DNA from: an uncultured Methanotrichaceae archaeon
GTDB lineage: Archaea; Halobacteriota; Methanosarcinia; Methanotrichales; Methanotrichaceae
Reading direction: 5' to 3'
Length of the DNA stretch: 64,000 nt
NCBI GenBank assembly: GCA_964518035.1
Contig: CAZFFD010000001.1
Location: 9,386-73,385 of the forward strand
Shown: positions 9,022 to 54,624 of the stretch, in pieces
Numbering within the stretch: position 1 is the first letter of the stretch
Layout of the letters: each line of letters begins with the position of its first letter
Program-made: the position numbers and the translations under genes
The notes under the pieces: model-generated
Seen by the model: only the letters and a program-made list of their open reading frames with translations
Databases searched by the model: none
Told to the model about the DNA's origin: nothing

Positions 9022-9048
9022 GAGCCCCTATTCGGGCTCACCTTTTTT
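9022..9048 (+). terminator. Hairpin plus T-tract terminator after glnA
   Basis: GAGCCC (9022-9027), a 6-nt loop, GGGCTC (9034-9039), then TTTTTT (9043-9048), immediately after the glnA stop codon. Confidence 0.55.
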
Positions 9049-9271
9049 ATCTAAAAAATTGCGAGGATAAACCATGAAGGGAAAGGAGCCTGAATCGACG
9101 GGCGTTGATCACAACTATTATGAATGTTTCTTAAATAGATATAAAACATTTATTGCGATCACTAGTTGCTCACACGTCATCCTATAGAACAAGACTTGCA
9201 GCGGATCAACATTAAATTGCGGGAAGATAGAAGGTTAATTGAAAGGTCGGTGTCTGGAGTTCAGGATTATT

Positions 9272-24578: not shown

Positions 24579-24881
24579 TCTGTATGCGCTTGACGTATGT
24601 TTTTAGCTCACCACAATCAGTATCTATAAGCCTATTTAGCATCATTCCGTGTCGCTAATTGCTGGGGATCGTTTTATGAGCCAAAACGTCACTTGATATT
24701 GGTTTCTAATTAAATGCATTTTAATACATACTATTGTATTAGGAACTAAAACCAGCATCTATCGAGCATTTCGTGGAGAGCTAAACACATACCGCTTGGC
24801 CACCTCAGAATTGGTTTATATTTTTTAGATATTCCTATAAACTCTTGGTTCCGTCGCAAAAACGAACCGAATAAGCGCGCT

Positions 24882-25298
24882 TTATTTTGAAATATTTTGC
24901 TCCCCTTTTGCCATTGATGACTCAATTTTCCCATGAATCCAAAAAACCACACCCCACAGGAATATTAGAATAATTAAATATGTTAAATAGGTGTCTAAAT
25001 AATATTCAAATTCTGTAAAACTTTTATAAATAATAACAAGTGCTATTATACTAATAACTATAGACGGCGCTAATTTTCGAATATTTCCATTTAAATAACA
25101 TGCAAATAAAATTAAACTAATGCCCAACAATACCAGAGCGGAAACTGTCAAATAAGGGATATTTTGATAATTTTCTTCATAAGAGGCCATTATCAATAGA
25201 TCCTCTTTTAATAATGTTATATGAAATAGAGTCAACAAAGAAAAACATATAAATTCACATCCAATAAATAAAGTAAATTTTTTTAATTGATATATCAT
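24882..25298 (-). CDS. Small polytopic membrane protein (hypothetical)
   Basis: 138 aa with about 4 hydrophobic helices. Its ATG directly abuts the stop of the upstream vWA gene. Very A+T-rich. Confidence 0.5.
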   Translation of the reverse strand: MIYQLKKFTLFIGCEFICFSLLTLFHITLLKEDLLIMASYEENYQNIPYLTVSALVLLGISLILFACYLNGNIRKLAPSIVISIIALVIIYKSFTEFEYYLDTYLTYLIILIFLWGVVFWIHGKIESSMAKGEQNISK

Positions 25299-26660
25299 CT
25301 AACCCATCCTAAAAAAAAAATTTAGCATATCTATAAATCCAATGTTTTTTGTTTTTAATGTTTTATTTAAATTTGTGTTATTTACAGACATAATACTCAG
25401 ACGACCACGTGAGGCAGTACCTAATGGCAATTCCTTTTCCTGCATATTAGAATGCCATGTATACCTAAGCATCGGACCTTCTCTTTCGCTTGGTGAACAG
25501 ATGACAAGAGGGCCTTTTCGTTCCGACACAGTCACAGGTAACGTCATTGGATTAAACGTGTTCTCGATATTGAAGGCCACAGTTGTTGTGCTATTCGGTA
25601 ATAATGCGGATATCTTAACCAGAACTTCGGTTGTACCATCCGGTAGTGGATTAGGCTCAATTATACTTTGGAGCGATTGGCTTTCTTTATTAGTATCTAC
25701 TCGAAGAGAGTTTATATCCGGTTTATTGTAGCAATAAAACCGATCAATTATTTCGACATTATCTGCAACAGATTTATTCATGATATTGTCGAAATGCGTT
25801 CGAAGAGCCTTCTCGATAGTTGCGTTAAGCTCTGAATATAAGTCTGTATCCACCTCTACAAAGTCACTTAACGCTTTATTCAATACATTGACGTACGAAA
25901 CTGCGTATCTTATTTTATTTTCATTATTAGATATATCTGTTAAATATTCATGCAATTCCGATTCATCTGGTATGTCCAATCCAACCGTATATATGTCAAT
26001 TTTATTATCTCTTGCCTCATTTAGCAAATCAGAACTGGCTGGCTTATATTCACCATTTCCAGTTACTAACACTATGAATTGCCTTGTGTGAAGTGGATCT
26101 TTAGGGCGGTTTTCAGGATTTCTAAATATATCAAGCGACGCTTTTATCGGCACTGAAAAATCGGTATTTTCGGTTTGATTGCATTTAAAAAAAACAGGCA
26201 ATTTTTTAATATCATTAGTTGCGTTTTCTAGAGATGCCAATTTATGTGAACGAGGTTCATTATCATTAAGCGAAATAAAACCTAATTTTTTATCATACGC
26301 AAAATCGATATTATCATCCCAACCGACGAGAGAAATATTAAAAATAGCATCAGGATACAATTTAGGTAAATTATTTAAGAATTTCGGAATATCACGTAGT
26401 ACTGCTTTTGTTTGAGTTGACGTCTCTTTAAAGCTTCCTGAGCTATCTAATGCCAACACAAAGTTATAATGTACAATTTTAGGAGTTGTGATCGTATATA
26501 TCATTTGAAATTTTTTCTCCTCATTAATGGGAATTATTTCATTTGTTATACTAATTTCAGTAGCGGTATCGTTTGACTTATCAGCCATCCCACTGGATAC
26601 ATATAAAGTTAATATCGTTATTAATATCAAACCACCTATTATAAATTTTCTCACTAGCAT
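25299..26660 (-). CDS. Secreted von Willebrand factor A (vWA) domain protein
   Basis: 453 aa. Signal/anchor MLVRKFIIGGLILITILTLYV and the MIDAS motif LALDSSGSF, followed by a vWA-like alpha/beta region and a beta-rich C-terminal domain. Confidence 0.7.
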   Translation of the reverse strand: MLVRKFIIGGLILITILTLYVSSGMADKSNDTATEISITNEIIPINEEKKFQMIYTITTPKIVHYNFVLALDSSGSFKETSTQTKAVLRDIPKFLNNLPKLYPDAIFNISLVGWDDNIDFAYDKKLGFISLNDNEPRSHKLASLENATNDIKKLPVFFKCNQTENTDFSVPIKASLDIFRNPENRPKDPLHTRQFIVLVTGNGEYKPASSDLLNEARDNKIDIYTVGLDIPDESELHEYLTDISNNENKIRYAVSYVNVLNKALSDFVEVDTDLYSELNATIEKALRTHFDNIMNKSVADNVEIIDRFYCYNKPDINSLRVDTNKESQSLQSIIEPNPLPDGTTEVLVKISALLPNSTTTVAFNIENTFNPMTLPVTVSERKGPLVICSPSEREGPMLRYTWHSNMQEKELPLGTASRGRLSIMSVNNTNLNKTLKTKNIGFIDMLNFFFRMG

Positions 26661-41016: not shown

Positions 41017-41074
41017 CTCTGATGAACAATTGAATGCTAACTATTTATGCATTGAGATCGCAGACATGGGTCTC

Positions 41075-41776
41075 ATGAAAGTATTGGCAATTAACGGCAG
41101 CCCTCACAAGGATGAGGGTAATACTGCAATGATTCTCGGACCTTTCCTTGAGGGCATGAAGGAAGAGGGCTGTGATGTAGAGGTTCTTTTCGTCAAAGAT
41201 CTCGATATCAAGCCGTGCAATGCAGACATGAGCTGCTGGTTTGCTAATCCCGGCACCTGCTATCAGTTGGATGATATGCAGATGGTCCTGCCAAAGATCA
41301 AAGAGGCAGATGTCATAGTTTGGGCGAGTCCTGTCTACTACTCAGGCATGACAGGCCCCCTCAAAATTCTGATGGACAGGCAGCTGCCGTTGTCCATAGT
41401 TCGAAATAGAGCCAAGAAGCAGAAGGTGGTTCTCGTCTCAACCTGTAGCGCCTGGGAGCTTTCCGTGTTCGATCCCCTGATTGTGCAGATGAAAGCCCTC
41501 TACGGGAATCCGGAAGAAGGCTACGAGTTTGCCGGAGCCCTGCTCCGTCCAATGGCCGACAGCATGAGAGAGATGATCAAGGCCGGTGAGACTGCAATGG
41601 TTGACCGCGTCTTTCAGGCAGCGAAGAAGGCTGGCAGCCAGCTAGCTAAAGAGGGAAAGATCTCAGAGGATCTCAGCCAGCAGGTAAGCCGAGAGCTGAT
41701 GCCCCGCGATGCATATTACAAGGCAATGGAGCTGGCACTTGATCAGATCAAAAAGGCTGCAGGAAAAAGTCCTTAG
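41075..41776 (+). CDS. Flavodoxin-like fold NAD(P)H-dependent FMN reductase family protein
   Basis: MKVLAINGSPHKDEGNT N-terminus and IVWASPVYYSGMTGPLK, typical of the FMN_red / iron-sulfur flavoprotein-like family. ATG 41075 is preferred over TTG 41030. Confidence 0.7.
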   Translation: MKVLAINGSPHKDEGNTAMILGPFLEGMKEEGCDVEVLFVKDLDIKPCNADMSCWFANPGTCYQLDDMQMVLPKIKEADVIVWASPVYYSGMTGPLKILMDRQLPLSIVRNRAKKQKVVLVSTCSAWELSVFDPLIVQMKALYGNPEEGYEFAGALLRPMADSMREMIKAGETAMVDRVFQAAKKAGSQLAKEGKISEDLSQQVSRELMPRDAYYKAMELALDQIKKAAGKSP

Positions 41777-41777
41777 A

Positions 41778-42410
41778 ATGTTGCTTCTCGGCGCAGATGA
41801 GGCTGGAAAGGGCCCTGTCATTGGTTCGATGTTTGTGGCCGGGCTTGTGATCGATGAGGAGAGGCTCTTTGACCTGGCGGGCTTCGGAGTCAAGGACTCC
41901 AAGCTCCTCTCTCCTGCGAGAAGAGAGGTGCTGGCCAAAAAGATCGCAGGCATTGCTACAGACCAGTTCATTCTTGAGGTCAAGCCCCAGATGATCGATG
42001 AGCTGCGAGAGGTCATGACAATGAACGAGATCATGGTCAGAAGCTTCTCTACAGTTGTTGCAAAGCTTCATGCCGACAGGGCAATGCTTGATGCTGCGGA
42101 CGTGAATGCACAGAGGTTTGCCAATCGTGTGAAGGCAGCCAGCAAGACTGAAATGCTGGTCCAGGCTGAGCACAAAGCAGACCAGCATCATCAGGTCGTC
42201 TCTGCTGCCTCGATTCTGGCCAAGGTGCGGCGGGATGCCTCCATGCGTGAACTGGAGGAGGTCATGCACTGCAAGATCGGCAGCGGCTATCCTCACGATC
42301 AGGATACATTGAACTTTTTGAGCCAATGGGTGAAGGAGAACCGGGATCTTCCCCCCTGCGCCAGGCATAGCTGGAAGACGGCCCAGCGTATAAAAGCTAG
42401 TTTTATATAG
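41778..42410 (+). CDS. rnhB: Ribonuclease HII
   Basis: MLLLGADEAGKGPVIGSMFVAG (catalytic DEAG motif), DSKLLS, and SAASILAKVRRD. ATG 41778 lies 1 nt after the upstream stop. Confidence 0.9.
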   Translation: MLLLGADEAGKGPVIGSMFVAGLVIDEERLFDLAGFGVKDSKLLSPARREVLAKKIAGIATDQFILEVKPQMIDELREVMTMNEIMVRSFSTVVAKLHADRAMLDAADVNAQRFANRVKAASKTEMLVQAEHKADQHHQVVSAASILAKVRRDASMRELEEVMHCKIGSGYPHDQDTLNFLSQWVKENRDLPPCARHSWKTAQRIKASFI

Positions 42411-42450: not shown

Positions 42451-43596
42451 ATGGATATAGAGGATACTTTGCTCATGATTCCGGGACCCGTAAAGGTCGC
42501 GCCTCGCGTTTTACGTGCCCTTTCGCGTCCCATGATCAGCCACCGAAGCGGCGACTTCAGCGCAATTTACGGCGACTGCCTGGGGCTTCTCAAGCAGTTC
42601 TTCGAGACCAAGAACGATGTTGTTGTGATGACCGGCAGCGGCACTGTTGGCATGGATGCGGCTGTATCCGGGCTCATAGGCCGTGACGACAAGATTGTGA
42701 CCATATCCAACGGCAAGTTCGGCGAGAGGTTCACCGAGATTGGCGAGAGATATGGCAAAGCAATTCCAGTGAAGTTTGAGTGGGGCACACCCTTCGACCT
42801 GGACCGCGTTGAGGCTGCTCTCGAAGAGGGCGCTAAGGCCGTGGCTATGGTTCACAATGAGACCTCAGTCGGCCTCACAAATCCAGCAAAGGAAGTGGGC
42901 AAGCTCGCCAGAAAACACGATGCGGTCTTCATCGTAGACGGCATATCCTCGATAGGCGGAAACGAGTTTTTGACAGACGAGTGGGGCATAGACATCGCCA
43001 TCACAGGCTCGCAGAAAGCTCTGGCTATTCCACCCGGCCTCGCAGTGGTCTCCACATCGCCGAGAGCCGAAGAGAGATTGTTGCCAAAGAGCGGCAGCTA
43101 TTACGCCGACCTCAAGGCCCACCTGAAGAGCATGAGAAAGAGCCAGCCACAGACGCCGTTCACCCCGGCAGTATCGTTGTTCTTTGCAATGCAGGAGTCG
43201 CTTCACATGGCTGCTGAGGACGGATTTGCTGCACGAAGGGCAAGGACCGCTAGGCAGGCCGAGTCGGTCCGCGCTGCTGCCAAAGCTCTTGGCATCGAGC
43301 TGTTCCCGCGCGTCAACGAGCACTCTCACTACTCAAACACTGTGACCGCCATGAAGATCCCGGCGGGCGTCACGGATGACCAGCTCCGGGGTGGTATGAA
43401 GAAGCAGGGCGTGATCGTCTCCGGCGGTCAGGATGCGATCAAGGGCAAGATCTTCAGGATCGGAACGATGGGAGTATGCTCCACAGGCGACATCCTGCGA
43501 ACCATCCAGACGCTCGAGCTAATCCTGGCCAAGCAGGGCAAGATCGCCTCCTGCGGCGCGGGAGTCGAGGCTGCAAGCCAGGTGCTGGGGATTTAA
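42451..43596 (+). CDS. Class V pyridoxal-phosphate aminotransferase (serine-pyruvate / alanine-glyoxylate / phosphoserine aminotransferase family)
   Basis: 381 aa. LLMIPGPV N-terminus, GSGTVGMDAA, and the PLP-Lys region ITGSQKALAIPPG. Confidence 0.85.
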   Translation: MDIEDTLLMIPGPVKVAPRVLRALSRPMISHRSGDFSAIYGDCLGLLKQFFETKNDVVVMTGSGTVGMDAAVSGLIGRDDKIVTISNGKFGERFTEIGERYGKAIPVKFEWGTPFDLDRVEAALEEGAKAVAMVHNETSVGLTNPAKEVGKLARKHDAVFIVDGISSIGGNEFLTDEWGIDIAITGSQKALAIPPGLAVVSTSPRAEERLLPKSGSYYADLKAHLKSMRKSQPQTPFTPAVSLFFAMQESLHMAAEDGFAARRARTARQAESVRAAAKALGIELFPRVNEHSHYSNTVTAMKIPAGVTDDQLRGGMKKQGVIVSGGQDAIKGKIFRIGTMGVCSTGDILRTIQTLELILAKQGKIASCGAGVEAASQVLGI

Positions 43597-43597
43597 C

Positions 43598-43605
43598 TTT
43601 TTTTT
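43598..43605 (+). terminator. Oligo-T tract (archaeal intrinsic terminator type)
   Basis: T8 run beginning 2 nt after the aminotransferase stop codon. Confidence 0.45.
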
Positions 43606-43694: not shown

Positions 43695-43702
43695 TTTATA
43701 AT
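43695..43702 (+). promoter_or_regulatory. TATA-box-like element upstream of the tubulin-like operon
   Basis: TTTATAAT lies 49 nt upstream of the first possible start (TTG 43751), in a 154-nt A+T-rich intergenic region. Confidence 0.4.
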
Positions 43703-43750
43703 TGTGATAGGTGTAGAGTAACATTCGGTATTTAATGGGGGTTAAGGCTT

Positions 43751-46700
43751 TTGAGCAGAATTATAGCAGACATGATCGATAAAGTATCGGAATTATGTCC
43801 ATCATTATTTAAGAGTTCCAGAAGAAATGGTTCTCGTCTCGCGTTATTCCTATTATTGATATACACAATTTCTGCCTTGGCCCTTGCCCCGACATGTGCA
43901 GCCCAGAGCGGATATGAGATCCGAAATGCTATTGTAAGTCCAGAGTACGGCAACGAGGACTTCACCTACTCGGCTGAGGTATGGATGAGCGACCAGGCAG
44001 CCGCTGAGGTTGGTGCTCTTGCAGTAACTCAATTCAGTCTAAAGCTGAACATTTACAACGACGGCAAGCTCGTCCATTCTGACTCCTCAGATCAGAGGGG
44101 AATGGGTAAGAGCTCTTTTGTCTTCGGCCCCTACAACTTTAAAAATAGGTTCGGCATATCTGAGACGGAAAATGCCACATTCGAGTTCGTCTTCTATGCA
44201 GGTGGCCAGCAGGTCGCAAAGACCAAGAGACTGCTGGGTCCAATTGTCAAGCCCCCAAATCTGACGGGCACTCCGCTGTTTGACAGAACGCCATATTTCT
44301 TCCAGGGCCTCTCAGTCTCAGCAGGCTTCCGGGATATGGACGGCCTCGACCCCAAGCCGACCTGCCACCTTGTAATCTCAGGCCCGATAGGAAAGAGCGA
44401 AAGCAGGATCTGGGAAACGGCAGATGTCTCATGTCGCTCCTCAGGCAATAGCGCCTACACCTGCACACTCAACGAAGACCTCTCCCAATACAGAGACGGC
44501 GGAAACTTCAGCTTCAAGATTGTCTACAACAACCTCAAGGCGCAGCCCCTCAGCTTTGGCCCTTACAATATCACCCTTCGCCCATACACTCCCACTGCAG
44601 ACAGCTTAAAGATCGACAGGAATCTTGATTACACCAATTTCACCATTTCAGCCACCGTTAAAGATGCCTCTGCAAAGCTTGATGAGAGCCTTCCGCAAGG
44701 CCGGCTCATAATAAGCCGTCCGGGCAAGGCAGAAGTAGCTTATGTTTCAACCGAGCCGGAGATTCTCGGCGAAAAGGCGGTCTTTAAATGGACAAATGAA
44801 AATGAACCCGCCCTCTTCAACAGGAGCGATGTAGATCTGAGCAAGGTTGCGCCGTTTTCTGCCAGATTGGAGTACACGAACGAAAGATGGAACCTCTCTG
44901 CCATGAGCCCGACTGCGAGCTTCAACGTCGTAGAGGAGGTTCCAAAGCTGATCAATCCATCGATTCCCGAAAACGTTTACGTATCCTCTGGCGAGATATC
45001 GGCTCAGGAGATGGCTGTGACCGTCGCCTACAGCAAGGGTCCGGGAGACCTCGATGTAAGGCTCGCCGGCCCCTCAATGGATTATGAGTCCACAAACGCT
45101 CCAACCCCGTTGGGTGGCAACAAGTATCAGTACCGCTGGCAGGTCGAATTCGATGATAGCCACGTTAATAACAATTACACGCTGTCCATGTCATTCGTCC
45201 ATGATCAGGTTGAAGGCGGCAGGTATGATTTTGATGACAGAACCATACACGTCTCCCCGGTCTCAGTCCGGTTCCTGCAGGCCAGCGTCGATTCTCTTGC
45301 CGGATGGTGGAATGATAGCTACACTTACTCGCTTAAGATGGACACCACAGTTCCAGTCAAGGTTCAGCTCCAGGTCTATGACCCATGTAGTAGTGACTGG
45401 ATCAAGAAGCAGACAAAGGACGTGGCGGCAGGGACTGCCAGCGCCATCAACTGGACCCTTCAGCCATTTGCATATGATTGTCAGGAGATGGCGGGTCAGA
45501 ACGCAAAGTACAGGTTCAAAGCCATATTCTCGGGCGAGGAGATTGCATCATCTAGGGCTTATGATGGTCCCAGCTTCCTCGGAGCCAAGCCTGTTTTGGT
45601 GTCCATTTCACCTCAGAGCAATCCAATGGTTGTCTACGTATCAGACGAGGGTGCTTCCAGCAGCGTTTCTGCTACAGTCGAGTATGCAGCAGGGCAGGGC
45701 CAGGCCGCTATTCGCCTGGAGGGGCCGGACGGAACCCTGAAGGTGGATGAGCAGAGCCGCGGAGTTGCTCTTGGCGCGAACAGGTACAGATACGACTGGA
45801 GCCTGCCCTTCGATCTGGCAGATGCTGATAAGAGCTTCAATTTGAGCCTTTCCTACAGCCACGCCACGCTTTCAAGCGAGTATCCGCTAGCCGAAAGAAC
45901 TGTAGTTGTCCAGCCCGTCTCCATTAAGTTTGGAGAGGAAGGTGCATCGGTTTCGCCAAACAAGGGAAGATGGAATGATACCTTTGTCTATTCAGTGCCT
46001 GTGGCATCCACCGTCGATGCGGCAGTCAAGCTGCAGGTCTATAACTCATGCAGCCACACCTGGGCAGAGAGGGCCTCAGGAAAGGTTATCGCAGGTGAGA
46101 CGTTGCTCAACATGACTGCGAAGCCGTTCAAGAGCAAGTGCGCTGATTCGGAAGGGGATGTGGCCATCTATCGTTTCGTTGCCAGCTTCGAGGATAATGC
46201 CTTCGAGTCAGATGTTCATTACGGTCCGAGCATCAGCGGCGGAAAGCCTGAACTGATTTCAGTGGACTACAATCCGGTGTTGCATGTGTCCGTTAATTCG
46301 CCCGCCTATCAGTCTGTCAAGGCGATAGTTGACCTGCCGCAGGGACAGGATGCGATTGAGATCACAACAGTTGGTCCGAATAAGAGTCCCGTTACCGAAG
46401 AGATGAATGGTGTCTATCTGGGTGCAACTCGATACTTATTCACCTGGTCGAAAGAGTATGGCAAAGATGATGTCGGAAACTACACGCTCGACATCAAAAA
46501 TGTCCATCCGCAAACCTCAGGAGGAGAAATAACGTTCTCCGGGACAATGGCGGTCGTCCTGGATGAAGCCAGTTCAGGACTGGAGCCAAAGGCCATCGGG
46601 GACGTGAGCTACCTGCCGGTGCTGTTCGTCACTGCCGAAAAAGGGGCCAGCCAGGCGTTTTTCGCTGAGGTCTACTCGCCCGGAGGCAAGGGAACAATGA

Positions 46701-47917
46701 CATTGAATTTGACAGGTGTCGGCAAAAGCCGGGCGGTTGAGATGAGTGCTACCGAGATGGGTGCAAATCGGTATAGATATGATTATGCGGAGCCGTTTGA
46801 TGCATCGAACGCAGGCAACAACTACATGTTCTCATTGGACTATCAATTGGACGGCAAGAGATATGCGTTATTTGACGACCATATTATGCAGGTGGCATTA
46901 GAGGGAACAGAGCCGGAGCCGATATGGGAGCCCAAGCTCATTTTGGAGTATGACACAACCCTGTATGTGCCAGCGGGTGGAAAAGCAGATCAGCTCATCC
47001 ATGCTACCATCAACTACACCGAAAGCGGAGGCATTCTCAAGTTGAATCTGACAGGTCCGAGCAAGAATTTGACCGAAAGCTTGAGCGACAGAGCTATCGG
47101 AGTTGATAGGTATCTGTACGAGGCCGATATTCCATTTGATGAAAACGACATTGGCAATAGCTTTACAATATCTCTCGCATTCAATCACACGAGTCTCGCC
47201 GGCGGAGATTACAGGTTTGCCGATCATTACATGAGGGTTCTCAAGAAAGCTCCTCTGAGTCAGCAGGGCTCTTCCGGAGCCGGGGACAGTGGACAGGGCA
47301 ATCGCGTCTTTGACAACAGCACGGTGACAGTAATTGGCAATGTAACGCCTGGGGTAGGAGTCATCCAGGCATGGGATGAGAAAGATCCCCTTCATGCATT
47401 GACGTATACTCTGCAGCTTCTTAACTGGAGCTCCAAACAGGTGCCCTGGATAGAGCTGTCTGTAAGGCCGTTCGGATCTGATTCGCCCTGGAAGATCGTA
47501 GGGGATAAGAAACGATATAATCCCACCACCGGAAGCGTGAGCTGGACCCTCAAGCCCTTCTGGGAGACGCCGTTCTTTGGATTAGCCGAGTACAGGTTCC
47601 TGATTGACGGAGCCGAGACGGAGGCATTTAAGGGGCCAGAAATCGTGGCAGTAGTATCCGACGCGGCTGATAGCATAAGCGGCAAGATACATTACTTCGA
47701 AGCAACGGTTAATGCTTCAGAGAACCTGACTGTATGCATGGTTGGTGGAGACAGCAGTCTTCCTGAGAACATCAAGGTCTGGACGACCGAGGGCCAATGC
47801 CAATATTATCAGGCGGATAGCGGTGATCAGACATACAAATGGCAAACGGCTGTGGCTCAAGCCCCTCCGTACTACGATTTCGATATACAGATTAGGGACG
47901 AGGAGAGCATAAAATGA
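43751..47917 (+). CDS. Giant secreted repeat glycoprotein (hypothetical; alternating ~100-aa beta-rich modules)
   Basis: 1388 aa. Signal peptide RRNGSRLALFLLLIYTISALALAPTCAAQ. There are five copies of a module carrying G.NRY.Y.W...FD....N(Y/F).(L/F)SLS(Y/F).H, plus at least three or four copies of a second module with a conserved Cys pair and the Y(R/E)F...GP(S/E)I pattern. About 25 N-x-S/T sequons. The start is TTG 43751 or ATG 43772. Confidence 0.75.
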   Translation: MSRIIADMIDKVSELCPSLFKSSRRNGSRLALFLLLIYTISALALAPTCAAQSGYEIRNAIVSPEYGNEDFTYSAEVWMSDQAAAEVGALAVTQFSLKLNIYNDGKLVHSDSSDQRGMGKSSFVFGPYNFKNRFGISETENATFEFVFYAGGQQVAKTKRLLGPIVKPPNLTGTPLFDRTPYFFQGLSVSAGFRDMDGLDPKPTCHLVISGPIGKSESRIWETADVSCRSSGNSAYTCTLNEDLSQYRDGGNFSFKIVYNNLKAQPLSFGPYNITLRPYTPTADSLKIDRNLDYTNFTISATVKDASAKLDESLPQGRLIISRPGKAEVAYVSTEPEILGEKAVFKWTNENEPALFNRSDVDLSKVAPFSARLEYTNERWNLSAMSPTASFNVVEEVPKLINPSIPENVYVSSGEISAQEMAVTVAYSKGPGDLDVRLAGPSMDYESTNAPTPLGGNKYQYRWQVEFDDSHVNNNYTLSMSFVHDQVEGGRYDFDDRTIHVSPVSVRFLQASVDSLAGWWNDSYTYSLKMDTTVPVKVQLQVYDPCSSDWIKKQTKDVAAGTASAINWTLQPFAYDCQEMAGQNAKYRFKAIFSGEEIASSRAYDGPSFLGAKPVLVSISPQSNPMVVYVSDEGASSSVSATVEYAAGQGQAAIRLEGPDGTLKVDEQSRGVALGANRYRYDWSLPFDLADADKSFNLSLSYSHATLSSEYPLAERTVVVQPVSIKFGEEGASVSPNKGRWNDTFVYSVPVASTVDAAVKLQVYNSCSHTWAERASGKVIAGETLLNMTAKPFKSKCADSEGDVAIYRFVASFEDNAFESDVHYGPSISGGKPELISVDYNPVLHVSVNSPAYQSVKAIVDLPQGQDAIEITTVGPNKSPVTEEMNGVYLGATRYLFTWSKEYGKDDVGNYTLDIKNVHPQTSGGEITFSGTMAVVLDEASSGLEPKAIGDVSYLPVLFVTAEKGASQAFFAEVYSPGGKGTMTLNLTGVGKSRAVEMSATEMGANRYRYDYAEPFDASNAGNNYMFSLDYQLDGKRYALFDDHIMQVALEGTEPEPIWEPKLILEYDTTLYVPAGGKADQLIHATINYTESGGILKLNLTGPSKNLTESLSDRAIGVDRYLYEADIPFDENDIGNSFTISLAFNHTSLAGGDYRFADHYMRVLKKAPLSQQGSSGAGDSGQGNRVFDNSTVTVIGNVTPGVGVIQAWDEKDPLHALTYTLQLLNWSSKQVPWIELSVRPFGSDSPWKIVGDKKRYNPTTGSVSWTLKPFWETPFFGLAEYRFLIDGAETEAFKGPEIVAVVSDAADSISGKIHYFEATVNASENLTVCMVGGDSSLPENIKVWTTEGQCQYYQADSGDQTYKWQTAVAQAPPYYDFDIQIRDEESIK

Positions 47918-49437
47918 ATCGGAAATTGATCTGCATTCTGGTCATATTTGCCATTCTCTTATCAGTACAAAACGTGGTAGGCCCGGCCACAAAATCGTCG
48001 GGATCGACCAGCGGAGGTGGCGGTGGTGGGGGCAGCAAGCCGGTCGATATCGACAAATTGCTCAAGGCAGTGGAAGACGGAAAGAAGAACAAGCCGGATA
48101 CGTTCGAAGAGCTGAAGACCATACTCTGGAAGGACCCGATTACAAGCGAAAACTACACTCTTCCCACTGTGCTGATGTACTACAATGGAAATAACACTAC
48201 AGTCAGCCGGACAGAGCCGATAGATATTATCACCGTGGTCACAAACAACAATCCTCTTGAGATGCGGCGGATGCTCGATCTATATCTTGAGGTAAAGGAC
48301 CCTGGGGAGAGCGTGTATCGGCGGGTCAACTCCTGGCCTGAGAAAATTCAGACCAATGAGTATAACGAAAAACACAATACCACTCAGAGGACTTGGACAA
48401 TGCTGCCATCTTTTCTCTACCTTAAAAAGGTCGGAGAGGTGAGGCTGAGAGTTAATGTGAGCGATGGTGTCAATAAATGGAGCACAGCCAGCTATTCCAG
48501 GGTCAATCCGCCGTTTTACGGCGATCTGGTCTTCAATGTAACAAACAGCCTGCCCAACATGAGCTCCTTTGAGGTGACTCCATCGGGTCTCGTCAGATAT
48601 AATGATCCCATTGAGTACAGGTCGATCATTGAAGACGCAGACGGAGATATGCTAAACGTAACCCTGCATATTCTTGATGAGAACGGCAATGAGTTCAAGA
48701 ATGAAACTATCAACACCAAACCGGGTCCTTTGAGCTTCAAAGCCAATGAATATGGATTCTTTGCAGAAAGCGATTCGGGAAAGAACTTCACTTACTACTA
48801 CAGCTATGATGATGGCATAGGCAACGTCAGCAAAGATCCAGAAGCGCCCTTGAAGGGTCCAAATATCAAAAAAGGCGCCAAGCTCTCTGTGGATCGTCTA
48901 GACTTTACCGGCAGTAGCGAAAATTACTACTGGTGGGATAAATATGGATTTTCCATAAGAGCAAAGAACCTGAACCCGGAGGAATACGAGGTCTCATTTG
49001 CCCTCAGCACCAGGACTGAAAACGGTGAATGGAATACGGTGGAGACCAAGACCGAAAAGATCGGATCTGAGCCTGTGGTTGTGCGCTTCAATAAGACCGA
49101 GCCTTTCAGGGTTACCGATGCCGGCAAGACCTTTTATTACCGGGTCAAATACTCGGAGTATGATCAGAGCGGCAAGGATTCTATGGAGACGAAAGGAGCG
49201 AGGATCAACAGGAAGATCGTGCCCTACAGCATCTACAATAGCGTCATGGTCCTGAATCTCTTTCCGATGTTGTTTATTGTCACGATGATCGGATTTTTCA
49301 TGGAGAGATCTCTCAAGAAGGGAGTCGAGGCTCATGAGCGTTCGTCAAGTGGAGCAGGCACCTCCAGGAAGGAAAGTCCAGCAAGAACCGGCAGGAACTT
49401 TGTGGATTCTATCGCCAAAATGCTTAGGAGGAGATAG
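47914..49437 (+). CDS. Type I single-pass surface glycoprotein with a basic cytoplasmic tail (hypothetical)
   Basis: 507 aa. Signal peptide, SGSTSGGGGGGGSKP linker, sequon-rich ectodomain, C-terminal TM helix VMVLNLFPMLFIVTMIGFFM, then a ~50-aa Arg/Lys/Ser-rich tail. The start overlaps the upstream stop (ATGA). Confidence 0.7.
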   Translation: MNRKLICILVIFAILLSVQNVVGPATKSSGSTSGGGGGGGSKPVDIDKLLKAVEDGKKNKPDTFEELKTILWKDPITSENYTLPTVLMYYNGNNTTVSRTEPIDIITVVTNNNPLEMRRMLDLYLEVKDPGESVYRRVNSWPEKIQTNEYNEKHNTTQRTWTMLPSFLYLKKVGEVRLRVNVSDGVNKWSTASYSRVNPPFYGDLVFNVTNSLPNMSSFEVTPSGLVRYNDPIEYRSIIEDADGDMLNVTLHILDENGNEFKNETINTKPGPLSFKANEYGFFAESDSGKNFTYYYSYDDGIGNVSKDPEAPLKGPNIKKGAKLSVDRLDFTGSSENYYWWDKYGFSIRAKNLNPEEYEVSFALSTRTENGEWNTVETKTEKIGSEPVVVRFNKTEPFRVTDAGKTFYYRVKYSEYDQSGKDSMETKGARINRKIVPYSIYNSVMVLNLFPMLFIVTMIGFFMERSLKKGVEAHERSSSGAGTSRKESPARTGRNFVDSIAKMLRRR

Positions 49438-49439
49438 GC

Positions 49440-50081
49440 ATGGACCCGATTGTGCAATTTCTGATAGATAACCTGTTTGCTGCAGGCACGATTGCGTTGG
49501 TCCTTCTCCTCATTATCGCAGCGGCGTTGCACATCAATAACATAAAAAATGTATATAAATTGATGGGCATCCTGCAGAAAAAGACTGTTGACAAGTCTCA
49601 TTTTTATAAAGAGATGACAGTCTCCCAGGGCTCTAATTTTGCTGCACTTGCTTTTGCATCATGGATAATGCTCTTCGTGGCCATCGCATTTCTCTACTTT
49701 CTGGTCCCAACCGTCTATTCCGTGAGCTTTATGGACTTATCCGAACTGGCATCAAATCCTTTTGGGTTTGCCATATTCGGCATAACCGTGGGTCTGTTGG
49801 CAGCAGTTGTTATCTTCTTCCTGGACAAGCTTCCCGATGACCGGAGGGTGTTCAGGTTAACTGAACTCTACAGCTTTTATGCGATCTCCAAGGGCACAAA
49901 GAAGATGATTGGCCTCACATTAATTGCTCTTTACTGCTCGGTGGTTCTGTCGGCTTATGTCGGCACGATTTATCCGGATAGATCTATGGATGCTCAGCTC
50001 ATCAGCCTTGCCCTGTTGATTGTGTCGGCTGGCATCCTGGTAATGCCGATTTATAAAGAAGCCTGGGAGGCGAGAAGATGA
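49440..50081 (+). CDS. Polytopic membrane protein (hypothetical, about 5 TM helices)
   Basis: 213 aa. ATG lies 2 nt after the upstream stop. Hydrophobic helices at about aa 12-30, 66-90, 108-130, 165-185 and 190-206. Confidence 0.65.
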   Translation: MDPIVQFLIDNLFAAGTIALVLLLIIAAALHINNIKNVYKLMGILQKKTVDKSHFYKEMTVSQGSNFAALAFASWIMLFVAIAFLYFLVPTVYSVSFMDLSELASNPFGFAIFGITVGLLAAVVIFFLDKLPDDRRVFRLTELYSFYAISKGTKKMIGLTLIALYCSVVLSAYVGTIYPDRSMDAQLISLALLIVSAGILVMPIYKEAWEARR

Positions 50082-51739
50082 AGCTATGCATTGTCGGAAT
50101 TGGCGGAGCTGGGGGAAAGGTCACCCAGGAATTTTTGGGAAACGAGGATCTTGAGTTTCCTCTTCTATCCAGGATCACCGGAGCAGAATATGTCTCACCC
50201 GGCACAGTACGAGGTATATGGCTTGAAGCCGACAAAAATGATGCCAAGAACATTCAGCACTTTTTCGGAGATCTGACCGAGGACTGCTACCCCTGTTTTT
50301 ATATTCCTCATGATGCCGTCCCGGATGGATGTGATGTTCATAGAATGGTGCAGGAAAAATATGGCTACGATGTGAAAAAGCAGGGATTTGTCAGAGATGC
50401 TCAGTACCTGAAAGCCATATTCGAGATCTTCGATACCGATCTGCAGATACAGGAGACCGTAGCCAGGACCATGACAAAGGAGATGGTTGAGGCAAAAGGC
50501 GGCGTTCCGGCTGCAAACGGTTCATCCAACAGCCAGGCACCAAATCCCATATTTGATAGCGCCTGGAATGCCATAAGGGGGTTCACAACTCTTGGAAAAG
50601 CAGAATGCGACGGCATACTGTTCATAGTCTCCTTCGGCGGAGGAACTGGAACTGGCTTCATCAATCCGATAATCAATCACATCAGGAATGAAGGCAAAGG
50701 GGCCTATCCTGTCTTTGTTTTAGGCATATTGACGGAACTTGGAGACTTCGCAGACAAAGCCCAGTTCTCCAAGGAGGGTCGGAGAAATCTGGCGGCAATA
50801 AGCGCCCTGTACGATCTGCTCACCAAGGGCAGCGGAGCGAATGGAGTGATAATCGTAGACAATGAGATCATGCTGAAGCGGTTCGGCAATGATTACACTT
50901 CTGCCAACCGCTTCATCCATAAGATCATGCAGCCGGTAGTGGCCGCGCGTGACTACCCGGACGAGATCCCCCCCACTCAGGCCATTGCCGAGCATTCTTC
51001 TGGCGGAGTGTCCAGGCCTCCCATATTTGTGCCGCTCTACGCATCACTGCCCAGAGGCAAGGACCCTGAGGATGCTCTGGTTAAAGCCGCCTTGAGCGAA
51101 GAGGGAAGGCTCTTTGCATGCTCGCCTGAGAAGGCGGATTTTGCGTTCGTATTCTGTAGGGGCTACATAGATTCGGATAAAATTAGAGCGGCCCTATCCA
51201 TGGAGACGGGCATCCCCATTAAAAGCATCTGGCCGATGAGAAAGATGGGCGAGGGAGAGAACGAGATATTGATTCTGCTTCGCAATCCCTATGGCGGAGA
51301 CGCTAAAGCCTATCTTCGAGATGATACCCTGGAGGGCAGGTTTTGCAAGGTGATATCGCTGGCCCTGCAGTACATCCGCCAGAGCCCTGAGGCCCTCTTT
51401 TACATGGGCAAAGAAATGAAAAAAGGAAAGGATGGCGAGTCGGACCAGGTGAGGCTCACCGATGCCTCCAGGCAGGCTCTCAAGGCCTACTTCTTCGGGC
51501 CTGACGGCTCAGGCGAAAAGAGTGGCTTTGTCTATGAGCTGAATGAGGCCAGAAAGAGGCTCCGGGACGGAAAGAAGCCCTTTTTCATCGATCCACTGCG
51601 CATCTTCCAGAAGGAGTCAGTCGCCTCTGATGAGGCAAAGAGATCAAATGGGCCGGCCAAGACTGATGAAGAAATTGCCAGGATCGTTGATGCCAGGATA
51701 CAGGAGCTGATCAAGCAGGGTGTGATAAAGACGCCTTAG
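50078..51739 (+). CDS. Divergent tubulin/FtsZ-superfamily GTPase (CetZ-like N-terminus, long novel C-terminal half)
   Basis: 553 aa. MKLCIVGIGGAGGK (T1 loop, very like the CetZ N-terminus MKxxxIGxGQAGGK). Tubulin signature SFGGGTGTG (nt 50636-50656). VIIVDNEIM (tubulin-like DNE, nt 50858-50866). No signal peptide or TM helix. The start overlaps the upstream stop (ATGA). Confidence 0.7.
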   Translation: MKLCIVGIGGAGGKVTQEFLGNEDLEFPLLSRITGAEYVSPGTVRGIWLEADKNDAKNIQHFFGDLTEDCYPCFYIPHDAVPDGCDVHRMVQEKYGYDVKKQGFVRDAQYLKAIFEIFDTDLQIQETVARTMTKEMVEAKGGVPAANGSSNSQAPNPIFDSAWNAIRGFTTLGKAECDGILFIVSFGGGTGTGFINPIINHIRNEGKGAYPVFVLGILTELGDFADKAQFSKEGRRNLAAISALYDLLTKGSGANGVIIVDNEIMLKRFGNDYTSANRFIHKIMQPVVAARDYPDEIPPTQAIAEHSSGGVSRPPIFVPLYASLPRGKDPEDALVKAALSEEGRLFACSPEKADFAFVFCRGYIDSDKIRAALSMETGIPIKSIWPMRKMGEGENEILILLRNPYGGDAKAYLRDDTLEGRFCKVISLALQYIRQSPEALFYMGKEMKKGKDGESDQVRLTDASRQALKAYFFGPDGSGEKSGFVYELNEARKRLRDGKKPFFIDPLRIFQKESVASDEAKRSNGPAKTDEEIARIVDARIQELIKQGVIKTP

Positions 51740-51905
51740 GGCGAGGGGACGAGCAGGGCAGATTGCCCTTGCTCTTCTTCCGATATTTCCAATACCATCG
51801 CCCAAAACTAATAAATATAAAGCACCTCATCCTGATTTTCGTTAATGCTTCTAATGGACGCAATAGTCGGTGCCAGAAATGGCGCAATTTTTGGGGGTTA
51901 AAATC

Positions 51906-52472
51906 ATGCTCAGTAGATTCCATAGTATCACACGATTGGCATTGGTGGCTCTGTCCATCTTTGCCGCAGCAGGAACAGCTCTATCTCTCGATTGGGATAG
52001 CTACACTCCGGCGCACGCGGTCGGAACCGCGGACGACGAATGGTGGACTGCATATCCCGATCAACATGAAAACGCCGGCTCTTCCGTGGAGCACCTTGAC
52101 TGGGTAATAGACGATCTCAAAGACAAGCCGGTGCTTCTTTTTGTGCATAGCAGCAACTGCAAGCCATGTCTGGCCCAGATGCCCAGAGTCCAATCGGCTG
52201 TAGACAGATTTGGCGATGATCTGCATTATTATGATATTCTGGCAGAAGATAGCGGCTATGAAAAGGCCCTTGGCATTTTGGATGTTTATGATCCGGACGG
52301 CGCAACTCAGTATGTTCCCACAACCATCTTCATCACCCTGGCCAAGAGCCCGGAGGGCGTTGTGGATGTGGTCTGGAACAGCCAAATTGATGCCATGAGC
52401 CAGGATGATATCGACTCTTATGTCGAGGATTCGATATACTACTATAAGGCCAATAGAGACTCCTGGAGCTGA
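51906..52472 (+). CDS. Secreted thioredoxin-fold protein (CxxC)
   Basis: Signal peptide MLSRFHSITRLALVALSIFAAAG. Thioredoxin-like active site LLFVHSSNCKPCLAQ. ATG 51906 is preferred over the track start 51870. Confidence 0.7.
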   Translation: MLSRFHSITRLALVALSIFAAAGTALSLDWDSYTPAHAVGTADDEWWTAYPDQHENAGSSVEHLDWVIDDLKDKPVLLFVHSSNCKPCLAQMPRVQSAVDRFGDDLHYYDILAEDSGYEKALGILDVYDPDGATQYVPTTIFITLAKSPEGVVDVVWNSQIDAMSQDDIDSYVEDSIYYYKANRDSWS

Positions 52473-52474
52473 GG

Positions 52475-53890
52475 GTGGCGGCAATACTGGCTTGCAGAAG
52501 GCCAAGCAAGTTGGAGCTGTTGCCGTCGTCTCCTGCAATGCCTTCAATCCTTTTGGCGGCGGCATTTCTATGCGTTCTCTCTGGCTACGCACTGGCCGAT
52601 GAGGCCGTTGTCGCTCCTGCGTTTACTGCTACGGGAGCAGACGGCGAAAACTTCTCTCTCTCCGACTTTTCCGGCGCGCCCCTGATCCTTCACATCACCA
52701 ACATCGAGATCCCGTTATGTGTTGAATGCGAAGAGTCCCTGAAGGGACAGGTGGAGGAGCTGGCAAGGCTCAGGGCCATGCACCCTGAGGTCCAGATAGC
52801 CACATTGAACCTCCGGAAGAATCCCTACTCACGGGACGGCAGGTCCCTGGCCGAGAAGTGGTGGAAGGTCAATGTCACCTGGCCCTGGGCTGAGGACATC
52901 GAGCCTTATGCTATCGGCAGCAAGTACCTCGACTACTGGAATGTGGATGGCGGATCATCCAATCCCACGCTCCTTCTGATTGACAAGAGCGGCAGCATCG
53001 CCGGGGTCTATCACGTCTACGGAGTAGGAAAGGGCGAGATTGATGGGGTCCAGAGCGCTGAGACGCTTTTCAGCAAGGTTAAAGACCTAGATGCCTCGCG
53101 GTGGCAAGGCCTGGAGGGAGAGATATCCAGGCAGGACGTCTCGGCCTTTGGCATGTTCTTGCTGGGCATTGTGACGTCTCTTGCACCCTGCTCAATTGCT
53201 CTCATGATCGCCGTATTCTCCTATGTCATGACCATCAAGAGGAAGGACGAATACCTGAAGAAGAGCGTCTCCTCCTCCAAAGAGGGATTCATGATGGGAA
53301 TAGCCTTCACATTAGGCATGGCCGCGGTATTCTTTGTTCTGGGGCTTTTCATCTCTCAGGTGGGCCTGTTCATCCGCGACTCCCGGCTATTCGATCTTCT
53401 GGCCGGATTGATCATGATTAGTCTCGGCATCAGCAACATCAAGCCTATCGAGGAGATCCTGGAGCCCATCACCTCACGGCTTCGTCCAGCCGGAGGAGAG
53501 CATTGCGAGACCAAAAAGAGCCTGCTACAGAGATCCGTTGAGGCATCTGTTGCCCTTTTCAAGCACTCTGCCTTTGTCGGAGCGTTTGCCCTCGGAATAT
53601 TCTTTGCCCTCGGCTGGGCTCCCTGCGCCCTCTCAATGGTTTTGCCGGTATTGATCTGGCTCGCGTCGCAAGATGTCACTCCTCTGGCCGGAGGCGTGAT
53701 GCTCTTCATCTTCGGAGTAGGACACGGCGTGCCCATCATCCCCATAGCCACATTTTCGAGAGCTGTGGGTGGAAGGATCGGAGAGAAGTATGTCTCCATC
53801 GGTGCCTGGACCACCAAATTCTTCGGAGTGCTGGTGATAGCTGTGGGCGTGGTTTATGCTGCGAGGTATGCAGGATTCCTGTTGTGGTGA
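52475..53890 (+). CDS. Fusion of an extracytoplasmic TlpA/redoxin-like thioredoxin domain and a CcdA/DsbD-type transmembrane electron-transfer domain
   Basis: N-terminal domain with ILHITNIEIPLCVECEE (CxxC). C-terminal six-helix region with CcdA-like SLAPCSIALM and LGWAPCAL motifs. An alternative start is ATG 52538. Confidence 0.75.
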   Translation: MAAILACRRPSKLELLPSSPAMPSILLAAAFLCVLSGYALADEAVVAPAFTATGADGENFSLSDFSGAPLILHITNIEIPLCVECEESLKGQVEELARLRAMHPEVQIATLNLRKNPYSRDGRSLAEKWWKVNVTWPWAEDIEPYAIGSKYLDYWNVDGGSSNPTLLLIDKSGSIAGVYHVYGVGKGEIDGVQSAETLFSKVKDLDASRWQGLEGEISRQDVSAFGMFLLGIVTSLAPCSIALMIAVFSYVMTIKRKDEYLKKSVSSSKEGFMMGIAFTLGMAAVFFVLGLFISQVGLFIRDSRLFDLLAGLIMISLGISNIKPIEEILEPITSRLRPAGGEHCETKKSLLQRSVEASVALFKHSAFVGAFALGIFFALGWAPCALSMVLPVLIWLASQDVTPLAGGVMLFIFGVGHGVPIIPIATFSRAVGGRIGEKYVSIGAWTTKFFGVLVIAVGVVYAARYAGFLLW

Positions 53891-54012: not shown

Positions 54013-54624
54013 ATGAAAAATCATTTAGCTCTTCTATTAATCTCACTCATCTTGCTCCTGTCAAACCAGGCAGGTGCATCCTACTGGTTCCAGGTGATCA
54101 ATGTAACTCCCATAGAAATGATGCCCAACAGCGAGGCCAACTTCACCGTATCCGTCAAGGGCCTGGGAAGCGATAGGGCCTACGTGGAGCTGGTCTTCAA
54201 GAACATAACTAAAGGGCTGGACTTCACCTGTCCCAAGATGATCAAAAACGTCTATCCTGCCGGTGTTACCAAATACAACTGCTCTGTCAAGGTCGGAGAT
54301 CTGCCCGAGGGCAACTACTCCTTTGAGGTGGATGTTGCTGCTCATAGCTCTCCATCCGGCAAGAAGGTCGCATTTGTCAATGTGGTAACGGATGCGGGAC
54401 TGCCGGAGGCTCAGCCCGAAGATGAGACAAATCCATCCGGGCAGGCAAATCGCGAGGTTGAAGCAGATGAAAACCATCAGCCCCAATCCAGCATTCTCGC
54501 AGATAACCCTACAGACAACTCTGCCAATAGCCCTGCCGATCAGGAAGCACAGGAGTCGCCAGCGCCCGGAGCCGCTGCAGCAATTCTCGTCTTGATGCTT
54601 GTCATGAGACGGATGGGCAGATAG
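54013..54624 (+). CDS. Secreted CARDB/Ig-like domain protein with a low-complexity linker and a PGF-CTERM-like anchor (hypothetical)
   Basis: 203 aa. Signal peptide, about 110-aa beta domain, acidic/Pro/Asn/Gln linker, and C-terminal SPAPGAAAAILVLMLVMRRMGR. Confidence 0.6.
   Translation: MKNHLALLLISLILLLSNQAGASYWFQVINVTPIEMMPNSEANFTVSVKGLGSDRAYVELVFKNITKGLDFTCPKMIKNVYPAGVTKYNCSVKVGDLPEGNYSFEVDVAAHSSPSGKKVAFVNVVTDAGLPEAQPEDETNPSGQANREVEADENHQPQSSILADNPTDNSANSPADQEAQESPAPGAAAAILVLMLVMRRMGR

Follow-up and report, generated by a model that had tools for sequence, protein, structure and literature searches.

A four-gene locus of Methanotrichaceae encoding a divergent tubulin-fold protein with conserved membrane and surface-protein partners

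The four genes and their products

The DNA analysed here is a 64,000-nucleotide stretch (referred to as the window; GC content ~51%) of contig CAZFFD010000001.1 from an uncultured Methanotrichaceae archaeon. It carries four consecutive same-strand open reading frames (ORFs), here called genes A, B, C and D, which encode proteins of 1388, 507, 213 and 553 amino acids (aa), respectively. Together they make up a system that is real and conserved, has apparently not been described before and rests on a known fold, that of tubulin. Their positions in the window are as follows.

43751-47917, + strand: gene A, 1388 aa, starting at TTG, with an in-frame ATG at 43769 as a possible alternative
47914-49437, + strand: gene B, 507 aa, type I membrane glycoprotein
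49440-50081, + strand: gene C, 213 aa, polytopic membrane protein
50078-51739, + strand: gene D, 553 aa, cytoplasmic tubulin-fold protein

The A/B and C/D junctions are 4-nt ATGA overlaps, and B and C are spaced by 2 nt. A first-pass annotation, made from the letters alone, had described this arrangement and assigned the products an inside-to-outside order: D as a divergent tubulin/FtsZ-superfamily protein with three signature motifs, C as a polytopic membrane protein, B as a membrane protein with a Gly7 linker and a basic tail of ~50 aa, and A as a signal-peptide protein with modules of ~100 aa and about 25 glycosylation sequons. The coordinates, junctions and motifs were confirmed, and the transmembrane and signal-peptide predictions, together with a model of B, agreed with the described topology. 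The features of A and B were also recovered, with slightly different values given below.

The structure of D was modelled with AlphaFold2 on a 20-sequence family alignment, which yielded a predicted template modelling score (pTM) of 0.74 and a mean predicted local distance difference test score (pLDDT) of 71.6, with low-confidence segments at residues 22-78, 134-152, 445-456 and 514-526. A Foldseek search with this model retrieved 908 PDB matches at E <= 1e-3, topped by alpha/beta-tubulins and CetZ2 (E ~1e-11), and viral FtsZ/PhuZ models were matched as well (E 3e-9 to 2e-4). The model and these matches make the tubulin-fold assignment of D solid. No transmembrane segment was predicted in the protein, along which the following features were located.

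50096-50119, + strand (D residues 7-14): T1 loop GIGGAGGK
50636-50656, + strand (D residues 187-193): T4 signature GGGTGTG
50855-50866, + strand (D residues 260-263): VDNE after strand S6
D residues 289-302: T7 region, non-canonical
D residues 396-406: family hallmark E-I-L-I-L-L-R-N-P-Y-G
C-terminal end of D: extension of ~110 aa with a conserved helix at its end (residues 530-546)

T1 and T4 were invariant in all cassette types (described below) and in the remote relatives of D, the exception being a solo copy near defence genes that reads GGRTGSG. The hallmark, E[IV]L[IV]LLRNPYG, and the DN that follows S6 varied little or not at all across the same proteins. The fold of D is that of tubulin, its nucleotide-binding loops (T1, T4 and the post-S6 DN) are intact, and it probably binds GTP. 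The T7 region aligned to the T7 loop of CetZ2 reads YPDEIPPTQAIAEH, and the D and E positions of CetZ2 were not conserved. The cassette types show YPxExPPxxA or YPDxxxQDDAPA in this region and some remote members QIDEAD, with an acidic residue always nearby.

The Pfam Tubulin profile (PF00091) matched D at 28.7 bits (E 2e-6), under its gathering threshold of 33 bits. Tubulin_2 gave E 0.024, below its gathering score of 27 bits, and the NCBIfam ftsZ profile TIGR00065 gave 10.8 bits (E 0.22) against a cut-off of 295. Searches of PDB-chain sequences yielded marginal matches only; the best one of the D family profile was CetZ2 (4B45; E 1.4e-3 over 160 residues), followed by CetZ1 and then by the M. 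thermophila CetZ (3ZID; E 0.058). TubZ (4xcq) was matched by the profile at E 0.15, CetZ1 by phmmer with D at E 0.22, and tubulins and Asgard tubulins at a marginal E of 0.5-1.3. A further search with the family profile, run without a word index, covered 1.84 billion representative proteins. It identified 104 proteins at E <= 1e-3, with no canonical FtsZ, CetZ or tubulin among them. Since 104 matches are far too few for the widespread FtsZ, CetZ and tubulin families, D represents a small separate branch of the superfamily. All D homologues with a source name came from Methanothrix or Methanotrichaceae metagenome-assembled genomes (MAGs). No match to D was found by tblastn in 50,697 GenBank phage records, nor was one found in IMG/VR, plasmids lying outside the search, and a viral or mobile origin of D was dropped on these results.

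C contains five predicted transmembrane segments and would be the membrane anchor or receptor of D. The identities of C and D were closely correlated across 105 locus pairs (r = 0.96). A 4-nt overlap at the C-D junction was found in 26 of 30 loci, covering all cassette types, and most of them had a GGAGG-like element 8-12 nt upstream. In the window, this junction is, by its sequence, a translational-coupling signature.

50066-50081, + strand: C-D junction, with GGAGG at 50066-50070 within the 3' end of C, then the ATGA start/stop overlap at 50078-50081

The signal peptide of B is followed by the Gly7 linker (residues 34-40), a transmembrane segment at residues 444-462 (window 49243-49299) and a basic cytoplasmic tail of 45 aa with a net charge of ~+7, ending in KMLRRR. 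B has 12 sequons, compared with 6.0 +/- 2.1 in shuffled sequences. Its structural model comprises two short helices, three beta-sandwich domains, a long transmembrane helix and a short C-terminal helix, for which Foldseek found generic tandem beta-sandwich matches only (complement C3/C5 macroglobulin domains, at low template modelling score). None of the 179 B homologues belonged to a Pfam family, and those with a source name were all from Methanothrix or Methanotrichaceae.

A possesses a single hydrophobic segment, which is N-terminal (residues 30-48) and of the signal type. The 26 N-x-S/T sequons of A exceed the 10.0 +/- 2.9 found in shuffles. A module of ~110 aa occurs five times (Smith-Waterman z 10-26 against shuffled sequences), the repeats sharing the motif G.N[RK]Y.Y at residues 455, 675, 891, 1004 and 1117, and two further modules of ~110 aa at residues 505-620 and 730-835 contain Cys (z 30). 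These repeats were visible only by Smith-Waterman comparison with shuffled sequences; a self-BLAST of A at E 1e-3 revealed none. No family match of A was obtained in Pfam, NCBIfam or PADLOC. The length of A ranged from 537 to 1644 aa across loci, and the C-terminal ~200 aa were the sole portion common to all A-type proteins. At distant loci, tblastn matches to A were confined to residues 1171-1386, and a local jackhmmer search linked at least 21 of the 22 A-type proteins through their last 230 aa. We infer that this C-terminal domain is a docking domain for B.

47303-47914, + strand: C-terminal domain of A, ~200 aa (residues ~1185-1388), which tracks the type of B
B residues ~85-190, ~215-300 and ~306-430: the three beta-sandwich domains in the structural model

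Conservation, polymorphism and chromosomal setting

All loci examined were found through D or B. The 24 loci from species-representative genomes all belonged to Methanotrichaceae or Methanosarcinales MAGs. Judged by these loci and by the named homologues of D and B, the host of the window is a Methanothrix-like archaeon. The layout of a secreted glycoprotein, a single-pass beta-sandwich glycoprotein, a five-transmembrane protein and a tubulin-like protein was present at every Methanotrichaceae locus examined, and the four-gene layout was also found at P0231, P0133, P0142, P0035 and P0028. Wherever the upstream DNA was covered, B and C preceded D and an A-type signal-peptide protein preceded B, with the exception of one solo variant. 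Because the same junctions recur in more than 30 independent loci, the arrangement is not due to chance, and the co-conservation and synteny that the first-pass annotation had named as a check clearly hold across Methanotrichaceae.

Remote relatives of D (profile E 1e-20 to 1e-37) came from loci at 37-38% GC, where the genes before the D relative again encoded a five-transmembrane protein and a type I membrane protein, the latter showing significant homology to B (local search, E 1e-29 to 6e-7). A search with one remote relative, P0164, gave 25 matches, nearly all of them metagenome proteins. At the low-GC remote locus L036 (5258-7857), the tubulin-like gene has a second copy behind it, broken into ORFs of 150 and 256 aa, and a second B-like type I membrane protein comes next (8111-9802); the system is duplicated in tandem here.

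Between genomes whose flanking proteins are 85-94% identical, the identity of C and D can be as low as 35-45%. Locus L027 was identical to the window at 89% in the aminotransferase and 78% in DsbD, compared with 51% in B, 30% in C and 36% in D; for L025, the values were 84% in the aminotransferase, 41% in B, 31% in C and 35% in D. Over the 105 locus pairs, the identity of D correlated weakly with that of the aminotransferase (r = 0.58) and more closely with that of B (r = 0.81), and in pairs with aminotransferases at least 85% identical, D spanned 39% to 94%. The sequences fell into 7 clusters for D, 10 for C and 10 for B, which were combined as mosaics. The DNA of L021 and L028 was 81% identical and continuous from upstream through the last base of B, without detectable homology across C and D, and homology returned after D; the two loci share B at 77% identity yet differ in C-D type. 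The window and L027 lack homology from mid-B through to the end of D. C and D are replaced as one recombination unit with sharp boundaries, and the cassette exists as several deeply divergent types. Given the correlation between C and D, this unit replacement and the conserved overlap, C and D are a unit that co-evolves, is translated jointly and changes hands by recombination at a fixed locus.

Relatives of D also occur outside the cassette. Three larger representative proteins end in a full-length D-like domain that shares 53-54% identity with D, the C-terminal extension included; they are listed here with a related protein of the remote group.

P0121 (L031:773-3826): KAP NTPase, QatA/PifA/PDC-S20-like, with a D-like domain
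P0123: CHAT, NB-ARC, APAF-1-like winged helix and D-like domain
P0130: DUF4062, NB-ARC and D-like domain
P0383 (remote group): precomputed CHAT family; matches a remote D relative over ~37% of that query

The PADLOC matches of the fused paralogues fell in their N-terminal parts only (QatA, PifA and PDC-S20 in P0121; chat in P0123). As the GC content of L031 is 41%, its host possibly belongs to a genus other than that of the window. The solo D-like gene P0106 (L001:6639-8270, L002:6765-8396), whose product is 54% identical to D and carries the degenerate T4 GGRTGSG, is not accompanied by B or C. It lies 94 nt upstream of a HEAT-repeat/PNP_UDP_1 gene, with Cap4 nuclease, MC4, AAA_23 and nSTAND/PNP_UDP_1 genes nearby, a setting that, from its gene content, looks like a defence island. 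None of A, B, C and D matched PADLOC-DB 2.0 at E <= 0.01, and identity of the four genes with a known defence system was rejected on this ground.

The genetic context analysis placed rnhB and an aminotransferase gene upstream of the cassette in 13 loci, many of which also had thioredoxin-fold and redoxin-DsbD_TM genes downstream. In a few genomes the cassette has other neighbours, namely DeoC and a YchF-like GTPase (L004) or a VWA/SpaA surface protein (L041 and L043). The cassette sits at a fixed chromosomal site in most genomes sampled and is not a mobile island. Large VWA/SpaA-type surface proteins with PGF-CTERM adjoin the cassette at L041:1-3187, L043:29-3463 and L036:62-2197, and occur where the upstream neighbours are other than rnhB/aminotransferase.

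In the window, the operon is preceded by the following elements.

42451-43596: upstream ORF, class-V aminotransferase (Aminotran_5)
43598-43605, + strand: T8 run directly 3' of the stop codon of the aminotransferase gene
43695-43702, + strand: TTTATAAT, a TATA-box-like element 49 nt before the TTG start of A

The T8 run and the upstream box, both pointed out in the first-pass annotation, were found at these positions. The run is likely an oligo-T terminator of the archaeal type, setting the operon apart from the aminotransferase gene before it, and TTTATAAT is a putative promoter element of the operon. Further upstream, a flavodoxin-like ORF (41030-41776) and an RNase HII ORF (41709-42410) overlap by 68 nt as listed; the true start of RNase HII is probably further downstream, because homologues begin at MRLLGADEAGKG.

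In the window, two proteins are encoded directly downstream of the operon (51870-53890): one is secreted and has a thioredoxin fold and an NCKPC motif, and the other is a redoxin+DsbD_TM (CcdA-like) membrane protein. This pair, kept downstream of the cassette in many loci, resembles an extracytoplasmic thiol-disulfide system and may be relevant to disulfide-linked envelope proteins. A 203-aa secreted protein without a Pfam match follows (54013-54624); its sequence includes an acidic stretch of low complexity, and its C-terminus, …PAPGAAAAILVLMLVMRRMGR, looks like a PGF-CTERM archaeosortase signal. Some 20 kb before the operon, at 23202-24578, lies the gene of a protein with transglutaminase-core and Ig-like_KY domains, and the same domain pair occurs in the protein directly downstream of D in L035 (10466-12496). 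Two stretches, at 13965-16421 (- strand) and 24001-26660, have a low GC of 0.39 and 0.41, against a window value of ~0.51, and may be acquired segments; their products are an 818-aa TPR protein in one case and a VWA-domain protein (25299-26660) in the other.

Possible functions of the cassette

Our tentative interpretation, to which we would give slightly less than an even chance, is that the cassette encodes a lineage-specific, envelope-spanning module of four proteins in Methanotrichaceae that connects the cell surface to the cytoskeleton, has the tubulin-like D at its core and is under diversifying selection. D would bind GTP and assemble at the cytoplasmic face of the membrane on C, and it may also contact the tail of B; B would hold A at the cell surface via the C-terminal domain of A. 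If D assembles on C and B holds A in this way, a cytoplasmic tubulin-like scaffold would be coupled to a surface glycoprotein array, which the module would position or pattern in the sheathed, filamentous cell. The polymorphism would find its simplest explanation if the module were exposed to, or exploited by, viruses or other antagonists, and we propose that such pressure would also account for the capture of D-like domains by KAP/STAND NTPases. The first-pass annotation had likewise envisaged a cytoplasmic GTP-dependent filament anchored through two membrane proteins to a large surface glycoprotein. That interpretation was supported in part, namely in the superfamily assignment, the topology and the co-conservation.

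Several points weigh against the envelope-spanning module. The contact of D with C or B is itself conjectural, and ~110 residues of the D model lie at pLDDT <50. Polymerisation-activated GTP hydrolysis by D is uncertain because its T7 region departs from the canonical NxDxxD/E. As L021 and L028 share B but have different C-D types, the specificity of B for C and D cannot be tight. The prevalence across Methanotrichaceae is that of a biased sample, since the loci were retrieved via D or B only. Furthermore, a divergence of a cytoplasmic structural protein down to 35% identity between near-identical genomes is unusual for a housekeeping cytoskeleton and fits a conflict or recognition system better.

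A conflict- or recognition-related reading, which the first-pass annotation did not contain, was raised by this polymorphism together with the STAND/KAP fusions and defence-gene neighbours of D-like proteins. In its most direct form, the cassette would be an antiviral or abortive-infection system in which A and B sense surface events and C and an NTP-dependent, oligomerising D act as a threshold/effector pair, the effector action being, for example, membrane perturbation after D assembly, by analogy with tubulin-containing GTPase-centric conflict systems. The swapping of deeply divergent cassette types between close relatives is consistent with such a system. So are the D-like domains fused to a KAP NTPase, to CHAT and NB-ARC and to DUF4062 and NB-ARC, the CHAT fusion recurring in the remote group, and the solo D-like gene beside Cap4 nuclease, MC4, AAA_23, HEAT-PNP_UDP_1 and nSTAND genes. 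Tubulin homologues have already been described in conflict systems of multicellular prokaryotes (PMC7159879). However, A to D lack PADLOC matches and an enzymatic toxin domain, and large N-glycosylated surface proteins are atypical of defence systems. Moreover, the cassette lies at a fixed site among housekeeping genes instead of in a defence island, and was present in every sampled genome having that site, within the sampling bias noted above. We consider a conflict system unlikely.

A division, spacer-plug or sheath-growth machine, in which D would mark where new envelope (cross-walls or sheath hoops) is inserted, with A and B as factors in the structure or assembly of that envelope, seems distinctly improbable. 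It would suit the origin of all named homologues from Methanotrichaceae, which are sheathed filamentous archaea, and the extracytoplasmic thiol-disulfide genes that follow the operon in many loci, given that sheath hoops are disulfide-linked (PMC11576556); CetZ, the nearest solved relative of D, controls archaeal cell shape (PMC9856176). Nevertheless, an essential morphogenetic machine would not be expected to tolerate C-D swaps to 35-45% identity between near-identical genomes, and the remote relatives come from low-GC organisms of uncertain morphology. No similarity of A or B to known SH proteins was detected, no structural model of A and no direct comparison with an SH sequence being part of this, and the MspA locus (Mthe_1069-1072) differs in gene content. 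The identification of A as the "major sheath protein" MspA (Mthe_1069 of M. thermoacetophila) was dropped, though not disproved, on the annotated neighbours only: an ABC transporter ATPase (Mthe_1066), a second sheath protein (Mthe_1070) and the sseA rhodanese (Mthe_1071), unlike the A-B-C-D arrangement.

A polymorphic self/non-self (kin) recognition or adhesion system, in which variable ectodomains of A and B would mediate contacts of cells or filaments in a multicellular archaeon and signal them to a matched cytoplasmic C-D pair, is very improbable: the allelic cassette types at one locus, the mosaic recombination inside A and B, the tandem Ig/FN3-like ectodomains of B and the filaments and aggregates formed by the host would fit it, but the sharpest replacement unit (L021 versus L028) is the intracellular and membrane pair C-D, not the ectodomains, and no homology to known recognition systems was found.

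Comparison with known systems

As far as the families can be compared, D stands outside FtsZ, CetZ, TubZ, artubulin and FtsZl1, in agreement with the first-pass annotation. Among solved structures, its best sequence-level relatives are the CetZ proteins (H. volcanii CetZ1 and CetZ2, 4B46 and 4B45; M. thermophila, 3ZID). D shares with them the N-terminus MKLxxxGxGxAGGK, a helix after S10 and a C-terminal tail, and both are archaeal and chromosomal. In contrast, no CetZ was present among the 104 profile matches, and D differs from CetZ by ~70 extra residues in the N-terminal domain, the ~110-aa C-terminal extension and the non-canonical T7. The cetZ genes are not linked to a five-transmembrane protein or a type I glycoprotein; the cetZ region of Methanosarcinales carries nadA, nadC and nadX (PMC9856176). 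In addition, Methanothrix has a separate bona fide CetZ. D did not group with CetZ at the sequence level (phmmer E 0.22; profile E 1.4e-3), and membership was rejected.

The eukaryotic, Asgard and Odin tubulins and BtubA/B were the top structural matches (E ~1e-11; template modelling score 0.5-0.6 normalised to the target), and D shares with tubulins the VDNE after S6 and GGGTG[ST]G. The D locus differs in lacking a heterodimer partner gene and in its membrane-protein operon context. TubZ/PhuZ membership was rejected on the chromosomal site, the absence of matches in phage records and IMG/VR, and the E of 0.15 for TubZ 4xcq.

FtsZ with its tethers (SepF, FtsA, ZipA) offers the shared concept of a dedicated membrane-recruiting partner, and the variable linker and conserved C-terminal helix of D recall the C-terminal linker and C-terminal peptide of FtsZ. 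The partner C, however, is a five-transmembrane protein without similarity to SepF, FtsA or ZipA, and FtsZ membership of D was rejected at 10.8 bits versus the 295 required by TIGR00065. By analogy, D would work most like a CetZ or FtsZ with a dedicated membrane tether.

FtsZl1/FtsZl2 and the GTPase-centric conflict systems (Makarova & Koonin 2010, PMC2875224; Kaur et al. 2020, PMC7159879) likewise combine a computationally predicted divergent tubulin with membrane or secreted partners in a multi-gene system, and share a link to conflict-system domain architectures. FtsZl1 has ~1000 aa, consisting of an FtsZ-like domain, a long coiled coil and a helical C-terminal domain, and is linked to vWA, TRAFAC GTPase and OmpA/HSP70 genes (PMC2875224). 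D, with 553 aa, no coiled coil, partners A, B and C without vWA or GTPase, and a Tubulin_2 E of 0.024, is not an FtsZl1 member; the kinship to computationally defined FtsZ-like families suggested in the first-pass annotation did not hold in this case, as architecture and gene neighbours do not fit.

The Halo.Tub/CetZ-like groups of Halobacterota (Santana-Molina et al. 2023, PMC9871819) and the non-canonical tubulin-superfamily proteins of Brown & Duggin (2023, PMC9856176) are also sparse and divergent and come from Methanosarcinia and Halobacteria. Their neighbour genes are of unknown kind and they occur in quasi-tandem copies, as do the D copies of L036. They differ in that their published context consists of unknown or coiled-coil genes, without the B/C membrane triad. 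Compared by description only, the D family may overlap these groups. For M. soehngenii GP6, Brown & Duggin list only FtsZ1, FtsZ2 and CetZ (PMC9856176). As D falls under the Pfam Tubulin threshold and that survey lists only these three, the D family may have been missed, the presence of D in GP6 itself being unconfirmed. In the library searched, no paper combined Methanothrix with tubulin or FtsZ, and those on Methanosaeta and tubulin do not describe the locus. In the transcriptome supplements of M. thermoacetophila, a search for "tubulin" and "FtsZ" returned canonical ftsZ only.

Both archaeal cell biology and ideas on how the eukaryotic cytoskeleton arose give tubulin-superfamily proteins a central place. 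Even so, almost nothing is known of the functional partners of the archaeal members other than FtsZ, and the D family brings its own conserved membrane and surface partners in a genus that is among the most important methane producers on Earth. For a cytoskeletal protein, it is unusual that C-D is exchanged as a cassette and that STAND/KAP NTPases have taken up the entire D domain; both observations suggest that the cytoskeleton of archaea, their envelope and virus-host conflict are connected.

The last comparison concerns the fused paralogues only, which resemble STAND/NLR proteins with integrated C-terminal domains: an N-terminal CHAT or TIR-like DUF4062, a central NB-ARC and a full D copy at the C-terminus. 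They differ in that a sensor or decoy role of the fused D-like domain is conjecture only. In a speculative version that we regard as rather unlikely, the cassette would be a polymorphic archaeal surface-to-cytoskeleton receptor whose matched C-D pair is swapped under viral pressure and whose D is guarded by STAND/KAP NTPases bearing a full-length copy of it as sensor or decoy. If true, it would be the first membrane-receptor-coupled tubulin system described in archaea and a prokaryotic parallel to the integrated decoys of plant NLRs.

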